A stretch of 61,899 nt of DNA, the filler included. It is 5 parts of 5 records of this genome, joined end to end, with 100 filler letters (N's around TTAATTAATTAA, not from the genome) between each part and the next. Parts side by side here need not be neighbours in the genome. Positions count along the whole stretch, not along the records: positions 56,212 to 61,899 come from SRR31156797_28903; 4 more parts are not named here. One strand, written 5' to 3'. Below are positions 56,505 to 61,899 of this stretch, in pieces; the stretch's first letter is position 1; every line of letters begins with the position of its first letter. Below the pieces are notes generated by a model, which had not been told where the DNA came from, made no database searches, and saw only the letters and a program-made list of their open reading frames with translations. Position numbers and translations under genes: made by a program.

Positions 56505-58004
56505 TTAGGATGGGTTGGCAAGCCTTCGGGATCTGTCTGAAGAAATTTTATATTTTTTGAGTATGCGTGTATTGGATTTTTCGACAGCCTGTCGGTTTAA
56601 AACAATTTTGAATCCTCTGATATCTTCTATAAGGTGATAATCCTTTTTACAGTTTTCAAAAGCTGCGATCAGATCCAGGAGAGTGACAATTGGTCTGCCG
56701 TTTACCTTGACAATGATGCCGTTGATAAATTGGTGGTAACCTATATTGACATCGTCGGGCAGCACCTGGGCCAGCATAACGACTTCCTTTTTGTTTTTTT
56801 GAGGTCTGCCGTTGTAAAAAAGATTGATCAATTCTGTGGGGGCATTCAGGTGAAAATTACTGCCTGACCCATATTCATAAAGATAGTTCAGGGTCAGGGA
56901 CTCAAAAACCAGGCCGCCAATAATATAAAATGAGGGTTCTGTATTATACTGTCTGTAAGGCACCAGGCGGCAGCAGTGCATGGAGCGTGTGAGGGGTATA
57001 TCAATGATGATGGGCCTACCCTGTCTGAGCACTTTTATTGAAACAGTATCGTTGATCTGTTTTTGTTGAACTGAAAATCCAAGATAGGTTCGTTCACCTT
57101 TGCGAAATTCAATGGTACCGTCATTATCAATATCATTGTTGTCTATGCTTAGCAGTATGTCGTTGATTTCCAAATACCCAATGGCTGGTGAATCCGGATA
57201 GATGGCATTGATCAGGACACCGGTCTGTGAATCCTTCATCTTGTAAAATATTCTCATATCGCTATTCTCAAGTTTCTGCATGGATACACCAAGTTCCGGT
57301 ATACCGTCCAAGCGGTTGTCTGAAATATCCTTGAGAAAACGTTCAATCACGGGGACAGGAATCATGTAACCGATATTTTCCAACTCAATACCGTAGGCAT
57401 TCTGGAAAGCGATGCCTACGATTTTACCATCTTTGAGTACCGGACCGCCGCTGTTTCCATGGTTGATGGAAGCGTCAAGCTGGCAGGCAATCAGATATGC
57501 ACCGCTGTGTTTATACTCTTTATGTTCCACGCGGGATACCACTCCTTTTGTGATGGACAATTTATCTCCGCCTTCGGGAAACCCATAGGCATAGACTTCA
57601 TCTTTGATATGGGAAAAGTCGCCTAATTCCAATGGGACTACACCTTTGAAAAACGTGGGGTCATTTACCTTGAGCAGTGCCAGATCGCTTTTATGATCTA
57701 TCATGTCCACAACTGCAGTATAGCGTTTAGCTTGGCCGGTTTTGCGAATCTGTAAAAATGTGTTATCACAAACCACATGTGCATTGGTTAAAATTTTGTT
57801 TCCTTTGATGATAACCCCTGAACCATGCCTTGAAGCAATGCCCTTCATCTGCCACGGCTCGTGATAGTTGTGCTCACTGAATACCACATATATTTTGACC
57901 ACAGTGCTTTTTTCATCTGTTGCAAATCCGGTGGCCGGGGATAAAAAAGAAAATAGAAAAATCAAACATGGGATGAAATTGAAAAGGCAGTATATCTGTT
58001 TCAT
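56505..58004 (-). CDS. Secreted Deg/HtrA-type serine protease (trypsin plus PDZ domains, Deg2/Deg9-like)
   Basis: Signal peptide, LTNAHV, DLALL, GNSGGP, two PDZ-like regions. Confidence 0.92.
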   Translation of the reverse strand: MKQIYCLFNFIPCLIFLFSFLSPATGFATDEKSTVVKIYVVFSEHNYHEPWQMKGIASRHGSGVIIKGNKILTNAHVVCDNTFLQIRKTGQAKRYTAVVDMIDHKSDLALLKVNDPTFFKGVVPLELGDFSHIKDEVYAYGFPEGGDKLSITKGVVSRVEHKEYKHSGAYLIACQLDASINHGNSGGPVLKDGKIVGIAFQNAYGIELENIGYMIPVPVIERFLKDISDNRLDGIPELGVSMQKLENSDMRIFYKMKDSQTGVLINAIYPDSPAIGYLEINDILLSIDNNDIDNDGTIEFRKGERTYLGFSVQQKQINDTVSIKVLRQGRPIIIDIPLTRSMHCCRLVPYRQYNTEPSFYIIGGLVFESLTLNYLYEYGSGSNFHLNAPTELINLFYNGRPQKNKKEVVMLAQVLPDDVNIGYHQFINGIIVKVNGRPIVTLLDLIAAFENCKKDYHLIEDIRGFKIVLNRQAVEKSNTRILKKYKISSDRSRRLANPS

Positions 58005-58445: not shown

Positions 58446-59195
58446 TTATTGACTCTTGGCGAAATCGTCTTCCTGGGCACCAAACCCCTGGACCTCAATC
58501 ACCTGTCCCGCGATACCGATTTCTTTGCCGAGTATGGCAGTCGCATCTGCTACATTAAGGATCATGGTCATGTATGCATCACCGTTTTTCTCCCATCCAT
58601 GGTCCGATACCTCGGCAAGGTAAAGCGTTGCCAGCAGCTTGGTTTTAACAATATCGGATTTCAATATGAAGTTTTCAATACTTGTCTTCGATTCAACTTT
58701 CATACCCACAATACGCCTGGCAAGTTCGAGATAGGCGTTTATTTCTGCCGCCCTGAGTGCGGCAATGGCACCGGCACTGGAAGCTGTAGATGTCCCGTAA
58801 CCTACCCGTTTAAAAATTTTGTTCTGCAGGTTCATATGCTCTCCGTCGATGTTTTGAATGCTGGGAAGCTGAACCTCGGCCTCGACTTTGGCAATGTCCT
58901 TTTGGGGATCATAGGAGATACTGGTAAACTGGATATTATTTATAAACGCTTCGGTTTTGGTCTCGGTAACACTTTGATACTTCGCTGCAATCATGTCCAT
59001 CACTGATTCCGACGCCCTGATTTTAAGTCCATAAACGGATTCTACAAGGGAACGAGAGGCTTGAATTTTTGCCGCCATAATGCTCATCAAGCGTTTGTTG
59101 CCTGCCCAGGCAGAGGGAATGCACCCTAACAGGAAAATTACCGAGACTATCATAAATAAACAGGTTTTATTTTTTTTATTTTTAATCTGCATCAT
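58446..59195 (-). CDS. Exported protein with two LPP20/FlgP-like domains
   Basis: Internal duplication: AAKIQASRSLVESVYGLKI and RAAEINAYLELARRIVGMKVESKTSI; signal peptide with possible lipobox LLGC. Confidence 0.75.
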   Translation of the reverse strand: MMQIKNKKNKTCLFMIVSVIFLLGCIPSAWAGNKRLMSIMAAKIQASRSLVESVYGLKIRASESVMDMIAAKYQSVTETKTEAFINNIQFTSISYDPQKDIAKVEAEVQLPSIQNIDGEHMNLQNKIFKRVGYGTSTASSAGAIAALRAAEINAYLELARRIVGMKVESKTSIENFILKSDIVKTKLLATLYLAEVSDHGWEKNGDAYMTMILNVADATAILGKEIGIAGQVIEVQGFGAQEDDFAKSQ

Positions 59196-59548
59196 TCCAT
59201 CTCTATCTTTAGGGTTTGAGTTTTAATCTGATTAGCATTTTTTTGTTTTGTTGTTTTTATTGGCGACTCTGATGTCGGGGTCATGTCAATTTGTTTTTCA
59301 ATGATTTTTACCTGTGGGTCGTTGCTGCTTTCTATGACAATGGCTTTGTACTTTACGGTGCCGCTTTGGGGGATATCGGGAAAACCGCTGACAATCTCTT
59401 TATTCACCTTATCCAGGTCTTCTACCCGATTTTCGACATGTTTTTTATTTCCTGCCCAGTCAAGGGAAGGAAATAAGAGGGTACCCAAAAAAATACAGGC
59501 ACTAATGAAGCCCATCAGGCAGATGTTTTTTTTACCAGTCATCATCAC
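59192..59548 (-). CDS. Small exported hypothetical protein
   Basis: Signal peptide ending in WA; overlaps both neighbouring genes (translational coupling). Confidence 0.7.
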   Translation of the reverse strand: MMMTGKKNICLMGFISACIFLGTLLFPSLDWAGNKKHVENRVEDLDKVNKEIVSGFPDIPQSGTVKYKAIVIESSNDPQVKIIEKQIDMTPTSESPIKTTKQKNANQIKTQTLKIEME

Positions 59549-60911
59549 TTAACATCCTGCCGATTCCGGCACCTGCCTTAATGCCAGGCTGGGACCTGGG
59601 CTTAGGTTTGGCGTGTGCGGTGGGTTTGGGTGCTGGTATCTGGGGAATTGCTGCCGACTGGGTCTCTGCCGGCTTGGGTTCAGGTGTCGCTGGTACTTGG
59701 GGTTCAGCAGGTACATACTTGGGTGTTTCCACAATAACCTGGGAGGCTTCTTGGTTTACATATTCCTGGCCGGATGCCAGTATAGTATTCAACTGGTTCC
59801 GCCTGGCAAGGGTAGACTCATCAATGGGAATATCAGAATAGATTTTCATGAATGTGTCAAACCCGATGACACTTGAACCAGGCGTAAATTCTGGGTCAAT
59901 GCCCTGAAATGCCGCTTGGGTCGCCGGATCAATCCGGCCGGTAAGGTAGACTTCATGCCCGTAAAGATATGCCCATTGCTGGGCCGCCATAATCCGTTCA
60001 GTATCGTCGATGCTGTAATAGTATCGTTTGATCTGCTTGACCACAACTTTATCCGGTTTTGTATCGTCACCAAGGAGTTTCCAATAGGGAAGTGCAAGGT
60101 ATTTTCCCACCATCTGGATCATGCTGACTTGAACCAGCACCCTTACGGCTGCATGTCTGCCCTGTACCTTTTTAATAGAGCCTTTTCTGCCGAAGGTGGG
60201 GCCAAACAGCGTTATACCGAATTCTTTTTCCCTTAATCCTTTACGGACTTCCATGCTGTTCACCGTATTCATTCGGGGTATTCCGGCCATGGTTTTAAAG
60301 TCGAGCATATTAAAATCTAAGGTAATTCTGGCAAGTCCCTGTTTTCCTGAATTGCTGTAGTCTAGTCCAACAGAACTGCTTGGGGTCCAACTCGGGGCAT
60401 TGGTGAAACTTGCTTCAACACCGAAATCCGTGCCGTCCCCACGGGTTTCAAGACCCCTGTCAAATTCAGTGATGCCGCCGCTAATGACGACCTCCGGAAT
60501 CAATTTTTCTGAAAAATCGGAGTACCCTGTGACATTCATGTTCTGTATGTATGCGGGATCATAGGGAATATATTTTATATATCCGCCGATTGAGTTCAGG
60601 GTACTTTTTAAAATTTCGGTAATATCCCGCGGTATTTCGCCGCCTGTTGATCTTGCGGTTCCTGTATTATCACCCACAGGATCACTTTGAATTTTAAGCT
60701 CCCCGGTATCGAAAATTTCCGTCATTAAACCCAGGTCGTTCAAGGTTTCTGTGTAAGACGTCAGTTTAACTTCAGGTCCTGTTTTTTCCAAAGTGATATC
60801 CACATTTTTAGGATCCACAGAAGATACACACCCGGTCAGTGTTGTCCCGATAAACATCACACACAGCACTTGAGCCACCCAGTTCTGCAGACCTAAAAAA
60901 AATTTAATCAT
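59532..60911 (-). CDS. CsgG/HfaB-like lipoprotein with peptidoglycan-binding-like segment and Pro-rich tail
   Basis: Lipobox LTGC; D.TG, ISGGITEFD, two predicted beta-hairpins, ITLDFNMLD..T, AAVRVLV; later Q..(Y)G...TGRIDPATQAA; start ATG 60911. Confidence 0.72.
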   Translation of the reverse strand: MIKFFLGLQNWVAQVLCVMFIGTTLTGCVSSVDPKNVDITLEKTGPEVKLTSYTETLNDLGLMTEIFDTGELKIQSDPVGDNTGTARSTGGEIPRDITEILKSTLNSIGGYIKYIPYDPAYIQNMNVTGYSDFSEKLIPEVVISGGITEFDRGLETRGDGTDFGVEASFTNAPSWTPSSSVGLDYSNSGKQGLARITLDFNMLDFKTMAGIPRMNTVNSMEVRKGLREKEFGITLFGPTFGRKGSIKKVQGRHAAVRVLVQVSMIQMVGKYLALPYWKLLGDDTKPDKVVVKQIKRYYYSIDDTERIMAAQQWAYLYGHEVYLTGRIDPATQAAFQGIDPEFTPGSSVIGFDTFMKIYSDIPIDESTLARRNQLNTILASGQEYVNQEASQVIVETPKYVPAEPQVPATPEPKPAETQSAAIPQIPAPKPTAHAKPKPRSQPGIKAGAGIGRMLSDDDW

Positions 60912-61188
60912 TTTTATCCCCAATTTGACCTCAATTAATTTATTTTCAAATTGCTTCAGCACGCTTTCATCTATTCAGGTATGATTTCGTAACCAGGGGA
61001 AATGAGTATCTGGATCCGTCCTGACGGCTGCTAAGCGACTTGGAAAAAATAGATACCATATATTTTGAGCCGAATTTTTATTGGTATTCAAGGCGCGACT
61101 CAGGAGAACGTGTTGAATATCCAGGGTTTTACGCTGAAGAATACGGATAAAAATCAAGTAAAATAGGAGGATTATTGTCTCCTCACCC

Positions 61189-61647: not shown

Positions 61648-61697
61648 AGGGTTCAGCAGTCCGTTATCAATAACTTTGCTGCTGAACCCTTTTTTTT
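61648..61697. terminator. 12-bp stem-loop between the repeat-protein gene and the accessory genes
   Basis: AGGGTTCAGCAG ... CTGCTGAACCCT; the T tract is on the plus strand only. Confidence 0.7.
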
Positions 61698-61727: not shown

Positions 61728-61899
61728 CTATTCAATATCCACAGATCCCATGTTTGCCGTATTGTCTTTGCCGATGGCGATATTTGCTGCATTTTTTACA
61801 TTGGATTTATTGATGACAGCGCCCTTGACTTTTGAATCCTGTATATTCACAGACCCCATGTTTGCCGTATTGTCCTTGCCAATGGCAATGTTAGCGGCA
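61728..61899 (-). CDS. C-terminal fragment of a 36-aa tandem-repeat protein (amyloid or beta-solenoid like); missing from the ORF track
   Basis: Own translation AANIAIGKDNTANMGSVNIQDSKVKGAVINKSNVKNAANIAIGKDNTANMGSVDIE*; 108-nt period; 17 identical aa with 7 synonymous differences. Confidence 0.85.
   Translation of the reverse strand, partial: AANIAIGKDNTANMGSVNIQDSKVKGAVINKSNVKNAANIAIGKDNTANMGSVDIE

Follow-up and report, generated by a model that had tools for sequence, protein, structure and literature searches.

A 36-residue-repeat secreted protein sharing an operon with a predicted CsgG-fold lipoprotein: a candidate surface fibre subunit

Introduction

To our knowledge, the substrates of CsgG-type (type VIII) secretion are of two kinds, the curlins and the Hfa anchor proteins of Caulobacter, in which the gene order is hfaA and then hfaB. 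Fap systems use FapF as their outer-membrane component. Of the surface fibres made in anoxic sediments and groundwater, we know of almost nothing described.

According to the available portion of PMC12822426, curlin meets CsgG through an N-terminal non-repeat segment, N22. In the Hfa anchor, as described in the accessible text of PMC6707917, HfaA is a small, multimer-forming protein, and HfaB is a CsgG-like putative translocon needed for the surface localisation of HfaA. Excerpts of PMC12392863 describe the Fap repeats as ~50 residues long, linker-separated, three in number and imperfect, each forming one Greek-key layer, with the consensus G-psi-psi-N-q-a-G-n-q-q-N-psi. Canonical curli and Fap operons have been surveyed in Desulfobacterota and Nitrospirota (PMC12822426, PMC3521004), and the available parts of both surveys leave the repeat family reported here undescribed. 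A full-text literature search, limited to main texts outside subscription journals, likewise returned no description of the family or of its operon.

Here we analyse a 61,899-nt stretch of DNA, hereafter the window, joined from five parts of one genome, at whose edge lies the gene of this family.

Results

The 3' end of a repeat gene at the window edge

The first-pass annotation of the window had proposed a gene for a repeat protein at its far end. The gene is real, but it is encoded on the minus strand, and the window includes no more of it than the 3' end, the 5' part being beyond position 61899 (Table 1). Its frame extends over 61728..61898, with the stop codon at 61728-61730, and remains open at the window edge after 56 residues. 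The block AANIAIGKDNTANMGSV occupies fragment residues 1-17 and again 37-53, 36 codons (108 nt) apart. Its two 51-nt copies differ at seven sites, all third codon positions, all synonymous and none non-synonymous, which would happen with a chance of ~4e-5 if seven differences were placed at random (12 of the 51 sites being synonymous). The spacing and the substitution count given in the first-pass annotation are therefore exact in the minus-strand frame. The fragment is also devoid of Pro, Cys and aromatic residues, and its last residue lies three positions past the motif GSV, so that the composition and the abrupt end described earlier hold as well.

Truncation of the gene is best explained by an assembly break inside the repeat array, since in a possible source run the assembled contig that covers the whole stretch ends at the final base of the window, 61899. 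In the same run, short contigs of higher depth overlap the window end, as with a collapsed repeat array in short-read assembly. Searches for a contig of the same organism extending the gene found none, the nearest loci being ~74-84% identical in DNA.

Table 1. Features of the repeat-gene locus, with positions counted along the whole window.
Feature	Position	Strand	Remarks
All-repeat secreted protein gene, 3' end	61728..61899	minus	56 codons + stop, 1.5 units of 36 residues
G+C-rich stem-loop in spacer 3' of repeat gene	61648..61690	minus	12 bp
p126, small secreted protein, 126 aa	61189..61569	minus	without known family
476-aa lipoprotein	59532..60962	minus	CsgG-like predicted fold, C-terminal peptidoglycan-binding-like region, Pro-rich tail
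p118, small secreted protein	59192..59548	minus	fast-evolving, without known family; homologue in 18/137 loci
249-aa secreted protein	58446..59195	minus	LPP20/FlgP-type domain; in 39/59 loci
p98, one hydrophobic N-terminal helix	58110..58406	minus	without known family; 38/137 loci, 27/59 de-duplicated
Deg/HtrA-type serine protease	56505..58004	minus	PDZ_3 E 6.3e-44, Trypsin_2 E 2e-24

Full-length relatives and the repeat unit

A search for longer proteins yielded nine longer relatives, and pattern searches yielded 79 metagenome loci and 58 genome loci (137 together). The closest full-length relative, L001, is 95% identical to the fragment over its 56 residues, with DNA identity of ~84% in the repeat region and 74-75% in the neighbour genes. 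Querying 1.84 billion representatives with L001 returned 410 clusters at E <=1e-3, 65 at 1e-10 and 7 at 1e-30. L001 has 273 aa, of which 21 form the signal peptide and all the rest seven 36-residue units in direct succession, so that its mature form of 252 residues equals 7 x 36. The 60 distinct complete proteins of this short class are all built alike, from a signal peptide followed by 3 to ~13 contiguous units of 36 or 38 residues and nothing else, and their lengths grow by whole units; the spacing between conserved motifs is 36 in 217 cases and 38 in 90. The possibility that such repeats are a minor tail of a large capped adhesin or enzyme, raised in the first-pass annotation as a potential refutation, is hence not the case in close relatives.

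Composition is equally uniform. Pro, Cys, Trp and Tyr are absent from the 15,259 mature residues of the 60 relatives, in which Phe and His amount to 0.01% and 0.05%, respectively. Across 185 unique units, positions G6, N10, N19, A21 and G23 are invariant. Comparison of the units of L001 with one another gave 171 synonymous against 52 non-synonymous differences (pN/pS 0.089), which indicates, together with the seven silent differences in the fragment, that the repeat peptide is under purifying selection, as first proposed. The protein was also rightly called unannotated: no Pfam, NCBIfam or solved-structure relative was found, the family profile reached solved structures with a best E of 0.012 only, and a protein atlas placed it among unnamed clusters, with a best score (0.82) under the tool's bar.

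Chain ends, predicted fold and self-association

We then compared both ends of the chain with its internal junctions. The C-terminal tail comprises four residues past the last A-N-M-G-S-type motif in 56 of 60 proteins. At the other end, 50 of 60 proteins have a small-x-small site from which the mature chain would start one residue ahead of the first S-x-V-x-G, with cleavage assigned by the -3/-1 rule only and some of the ten misses due to the regular expression matching within the signal peptide. From motif to next S-x-V-x-G, internal junctions measure five residues in 129 of 140 instances. As a tail of four plus an N-terminal residue makes five, placing a C-terminus against an N-terminus recreates the internal repeat junction. 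The terminal units are as well conserved as the internal ones: 17 core positions in 58 proteins, five of them fixed by the motif used to register the units, are kept at 0.977 in the first, 0.974 in internal and 0.974 in the last unit, and the hydrophobic core positions at 0.956, 0.944 and 0.941. This agrees with the earlier claim that no capping domain is present. As far as sequence comparison goes, the architecture of the relatives is all-repeat, in phase and uncapped.

The AlphaFold model of the repeat protein, a check suggested in the first-pass annotation, is a confidently predicted beta-solenoid (pLDDT 92.7). Foldseek returned no match to this model at E 1e-3 or better, and the best fold matches were monomeric beta-helices of adhesins, autotransporter passengers and TPS exoproteins. 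When two copies of mature L001 were predicted together, without use of the family's own alignment, the score was 0.35 (runs 0.35, 0.31 and 0.41) against 0.00 for the best of three controls, which were unrelated proteins and not other solenoids. Contact agreement between runs was at least 95%, and partner pLDDT at least 82. The mark applied is reached by 21 of 30 proteins solved as one-chain pairs and by 0 of 23 solved as single chains. The predicted interface is head-to-tail and joins residues 233-273 of one copy to 23-59 of the other; its lowest-error inter-chain pairs (247-31, 246-30, 267-51, 268-52 and 251-35) are all 216 (6 x 36) residues apart, that is, each pair matches a position of the last unit with its counterpart in the first, and the invariant Asn of unit position 10 is among them. 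The model thus predicts in-register stacking with about one layer per unit, in keeping with the head-to-tail association originally put forward, and supports binding without showing it; the result may also copy intramolecular repeat packing across chains. An arrangement of two 18-residue rungs per unit was considered and dropped, because the inter-chain contacts join equivalent positions of successive units, which argues for one layer per unit.

Carriers, long paralogues and fusions

By a hand count of record titles, nearly all of them MAGs, 48 of the 58 genome loci are labelled Desulfo-, delta-proteobacterial or Thermodesulfobacteriota, four Nitrospirae, Nitrospirota or Magnetobacteriaceae, five generic Proteobacteria or Pseudomonadota, and one Phycisphaera. 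A single cultured species is named among the loci, L127 bearing the label of a MAG of Desulfocicer vacuolatum DSM 3385. Besides the short class, these searches uncovered two classes of long paralogues. The second class, 12 ORFs including L086:5355-9284, L126:6201-9503 and L123:13473-17834, consists of all-repeat proteins of ~660-1450 aa when full-length, with an N-K-N-S-V-V-type tail; a Pfam scan of the L086 and L126 members found no domain. At least nine of the 12 share their locus with the operon genes described below, and several of them immediately precede the short subunit gene, which gives some operons two candidate substrates. Members of the third class (19 loci, among them L012, L053, L081 and L105; ~600-920 aa when full-length) end in S-V-S-S-D and were never linked to a CsgG-fold gene. 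In L105 and L108, the third-class paralogue follows a gene that fuses units to another domain, which in L105 matches a subtilase. The longest long-paralogue ORF has up to 41 matches to the N-x-A-x-G motif.

A few units also occur as a module of other proteins, namely a DUF900 alpha/beta hydrolase (P0006), a vWA protein (P0009), two subtilases (P0013 and P0022), a DUF2807 protein (P0012) and a protein without recognised domain (P0025). These architectures hint at additional use of the unit as a docking or stalk module.

They also bear on the alternative that the repeat protein is a secreted beta-solenoid that does not polymerise, serving as a monomeric surface rod, spacer or adhesin whose length varies, its open ends covered by operon partners such as the DUF2807 protein or p126, or tethered to the cell surface. 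The N-terminal placement of the repeat module on P0013, P0022, the L105 subtilase, the P0006 DUF900 protein and the P0009 vWA protein would fit a stalk or docking element, the long paralogues would themselves be rods, and the monomeric beta-helices that head the fold matches speak for the same reading. Both chain ends, however, expose the canonical hydrophobic repeat face uncapped and are exactly in phase, and the head-to-tail two-copy model passed its controls. We regard a non-polymerising rod as unlikely, though far from negligible.

A conserved operon around the repeat gene

Downstream of the repeat gene and on the same strand, the window encodes p126, the 476-aa lipoprotein, p118, the 249-aa protein, p98 and the Deg/HtrA-type protease, past which lie unrelated metabolic enzymes. 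We scored gene order in 59 loci, each a short-class gene, duplicates removed, that is followed by 2.5 kb or more of sequence. The gene for p126 comes next in 49, and that for the CsgG-fold protein next in 47 and anywhere in 52, counts that describe repeat carriers only, because the repeat motif itself served to find the loci. The remaining seven loci have neither a CsgG-fold gene nearby nor any of the listed partners. Homologues of the Deg/HtrA-type protease occur in only 7 of 137 loci, which makes it an occasional last gene and not a core member of the cluster. Of 20 ORFs scanned next after p98 in relatives, 14 encode a DUF2807 (Toastrack-type beta-helix) protein, and in L001 the DUF2807 gene is divergent and just upstream of the subunit gene; no such gene is visible in the window. 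Judged from this gene order, the repeat gene heads a conserved operon. Also at L001, a 209-aa protein with weak CsgG/LpoB-type matches is encoded ~1.7 kb upstream of the subunit gene (L001:7090-7719, minus strand), with homologues in 4 of 137 loci.

In an alignment of 22 sequences, the signal peptide of p126 is followed by a conserved D-L-D-D-G-I-S and then a Gly/Ser linker, and the C-terminal segment resembles one repeat edge; hhalign against the repeat profile gave a weak match (19 columns, E 0.055), on which we place no reliance. Its profile found no relative among solved structures (best E 0.042), and NCBIfam returned nothing relevant at E <=1. In the protein atlas, p126 falls into its own unnamed cluster (0.96), and the nearest named one, HfaA (Pfam PF27294, 0.76), can be taken as a lead only. 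The 249-aa window protein scores 20.6 bits against LPP20 (PF02169), below the cut-off of 25.9; 16 of 19 relatives match that model (best E 9.5e-7), and a search with the family profile arrives at solved FlgP disc lipoproteins (E 8.4e-6 to 7.6e-4). In the window as in many relatives, A-G-N-K opens the predicted mature parts of both p118 and this FlgP-like protein, directly behind the signal peptide.

The 476-aa lipoprotein is a candidate outer-membrane export channel on the basis of its predicted fold. Foldseek ranked CsgG first (4.3e-8), ahead of FlgT (1.4e-5) and PelC (1.1e-4), with alignments of 202-211 residues for CsgG versus 121-148 for the other two. In sequence the match is weak: the window protein scores 16.7 bits against Pfam CsgG (PF03783), below the cut-off of 20.8, eight of 20 relatives match the model weakly (best E 0.0035), and no CsgG chain came up when the family profile was run against solved structures (E <=1). 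All of 20 relatives keep the lipobox Cys45, which the window protein has within L-T-G-C, and the alignment reveals two conserved loop regions. All five cluster-bearing genomes, of unstated completeness, have one intact copy of the gene each.

In a second alternative, the cluster is not a secretion system but makes a ring or scaffold in the periplasm or at the outer membrane: the repeat protein would be a periplasmic structural element, the FlgP-like protein a ring former, and the lipoprotein a counterpart of FlgT or PelC. Such a reading is improbable in view of the three orders of magnitude that separate CsgG from its competitors in the Foldseek search, its longer alignment, and the absence of flagellar or Pel genes beside the cluster in the window.

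Intergenic elements and RNA-library contigs

The spacer 3' of the repeat gene folds at -46.9 kcal/mol (z -5.4), and 0 of 200 shuffles fold as well. A strong stem-loop occupies the same place in all six relatives folded. In the window, no U-run follows the stem-loop in the sense strand of the gene. Such a run is present in four of the six relatives, and it follows the hairpin in the gene's sense in L001, L092, L084 and L098, unlike in the window. In fibre operons, a hairpin of this kind lets the first gene be made in excess. The repeat gene is the first and probably the most strongly expressed gene of its operon, and this terminator-like hairpin, like the CsgG-fold lipoprotein gene two genes downstream, fits a secreted fibre. 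On the plus strand, eight T at 61690-61697 come after the stem-loop, which in this orientation looks like an intrinsic terminator for the opposite strand.

In three metatranscriptome runs of one study, contigs 90-95% alike span p126, the spacer and the repeat gene; these are relatives' contigs that show neither transcription nor its level, and we gave them no weight. Relatives' contigs in two RNA-library runs skip 60986-61186 or 61036-61186 and have 19-29 other letters instead, which leaves the window with 150-200 additional nt separating p126 from the CsgG-fold gene. The core of this insert (61062-61104) occurs once in the window and has a summed depth of ~540 in the possible source run, compared with 14 in its flanks, which suggests that the insert at 61036-61186 is a short multi-copy element.

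Discussion

We put at about one in two the probability that the repeat protein is a secreted beta-solenoid that leaves the cell by divergent CsgG-type export and stacks head-to-tail as the subunit of a surface fibre or rod. The solenoid, the CsgG-type fold of the lipoprotein and the head-to-tail interface are predictions from structural models; export through the lipoprotein, in vivo polymerisation and what p126 and DUF2807 do are inferred.

The assembly pathway might proceed as follows. The signal peptide would be cut at the small-x-small site one residue before the first unit, a position taken from a rule of thumb, to leave a mature chain of an exact whole number of units whose two ends, as seen in the sequences, are in repeat phase. 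Fold match and gene linkage suggest that this chain would cross the outer membrane unfolded through the CsgG-fold lipoprotein, and the absence of Pro, Cys, Trp and Tyr would fit such a passage. Outside the cell, it is predicted to fold into a beta-solenoid with stacked ladders of Asn, Gly and Ala and about one layer per unit. Since neither end is capped and both are in phase, we propose that subunits stack head-to-tail, each contact recreating an internal junction, as the single two-copy model predicts. More speculatively, p126, with its repeat-like C-terminus, or the DUF2807 protein could template or anchor the first subunit.

A broader and more tentative reading, which taken with all its parts we consider possible but short of probable, is that the system represents a third, structurally distinct class of secreted cross-beta fibres beside curli and Fap. 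The polymer would then be a seamless solenoid interrupted by chain breaks only, exported by a divergent CsgG-type route, started or anchored by a Toastrack/DUF2807 protein or p126, and widespread in Desulfobacterota and Nitrospirota of anaerobic sediments. The unit-bearing subtilases, DUF900 hydrolase and vWA protein could dock onto it or co-polymerise, giving an enzyme-decorated matrix.

That the family consists of diverged pentapeptide-repeat proteins is very improbable. The idea comes from the weaker matches of the representative search, of which 15 of 22 scanned are pentapeptide-repeat proteins, from sub-threshold NCBIfam matches to HetL and Qnr-type models, and from the unit itself, readable as about seven A/S-N/K-hydrophobic-x-x pentads plus one residue; yet Pfam Pentapeptide (PF00805) matched neither nine relatives at E <=1 nor the fragment at E <=0.1, a period of 36 is not a multiple of five, such proteins are absent from the top 50 structural matches of the repeat model, and the present ones have signal peptides and an envelope operon.

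If the proposed subunit function is true, the coupling of a divergent CsgG-fold lipoprotein to an unrelated 36-residue solenoid would widen type VIII secretion and bring in a new protein scaffold that assembles by itself. Anoxic sediments and groundwater, in which the carriers abound, are settings where matrix, attachment and contact from cell to cell or cell to mineral matter. A subunit this simple, with perfect repeats, in-phase ends, 3-13 units and no Cys, Pro or aromatic residues, could also serve as a model for repeat-driven polymerisation and for engineered materials. For now, with a fragment of 56 residues from this organism, the value of the proposal is that of a sharp and cheaply testable hypothesis built on prediction and comparative genomics.

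Comparison with known systems

The right-handed parallel beta-helices of autotransporter passengers, TPS exoproteins and pectate-lyase-like enzymes are built of irregular rungs, are capped, and come with translocator or catalytic parts. The repeat protein is 5-12% identical to them and differs in its perfect repeats, with nothing attached and no barrel domain. Toastrack/DUF2807 proteins are closer in context, as operon partners in relatives and as the domain fused to repeats in P0012, and a solved relative, 3ljy, matches the repeat model; they form, nonetheless, a separate family without the 36-residue repetition. In PSP contexts, DUF2807-type domains are held to be intracellular by the Toastrack paper, in its available part, which speaks against the reading favoured here; the paper ties them to membrane stress signalling and not to fibres.

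With FapC and FapB, the repeat protein shares one predicted layer per imperfect repeat, conserved Asn and Gln ladders and the proposed status of secreted fibre subunit. Membership in that group is hardly credible: Asn-, Gly- and Ala-richness, the possibility of one layer per repeat and a loosely similar N...G...N motif are offset by a channel candidate of predicted CsgG-type fold instead of FapF and by neighbours without other family match at E <=0.1. None of seven window proteins matched a Fap family at that threshold, in a library whose inclusion of Fap models is unconfirmed. The likeness to FapB/FapC repeats drawn in the first-pass annotation is not supported by either period or motif, for the Fap repeats described in the excerpts of PMC12392863 are ~50 residues long, linker-separated and spaced N-x-x-G, whereas the units here are contiguous, 36 residues long, 3 to 13 per chain and spaced N-x-A-x-G.

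Differences from curli are several. The unit has 36 or 38 residues, compared with ~20 for curlin in the accessible text of PMC12822426, and the N-terminal targeting segment is missing, the predicted mature start being one residue before the first unit in the 50 of 60 relatives cited above. Curlin_rpt (PF07012) is absent from the window fragment at E <=0.1 and from nine relatives at E <=1, and a canonical curlin was found in 0 of 5 cluster-bearing genomes of unstated completeness, the E. coli control being positive. On period, targeting segment and family match alike, the repeat protein is not a curlin. No window protein matched CsgE, CsgF or CsgC; the partners here are p126, p118, the FlgP-like protein, p98 and DUF2807. 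As for the channel candidate, it falls short of the cut-off of Pfam CsgG and has a peptidoglycan-binding-like region in addition.

The resemblances to curli concern the layout of the system as a whole. The subunit is small, all-repeat and exported by Sec, and its number of units varies; a lipoprotein whose predicted fold is of CsgG type is encoded nearby, and the operon includes small accessory proteins. Each repeat is predicted to contribute about one layer to a cross-beta solenoid, and a possible nucleator has a repeat-like segment, p126 here and CsgB in curli. The Caulobacter Hfa anchor (HfaA/HfaB/HfaD) offers a precedent for the proposed export, with HfaB as putative translocon, and a parallel in gene order, p126 preceding the CsgG-fold gene as hfaA precedes hfaB. 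It differs in that holdfast polysaccharide genes are absent near the cluster in the window and in that the available text of PMC6707917 makes no mention of a 36-residue repeat protein. By analogy with these described systems, the repeat-protein system appears to work most like curli and the Caulobacter Hfa anchor.
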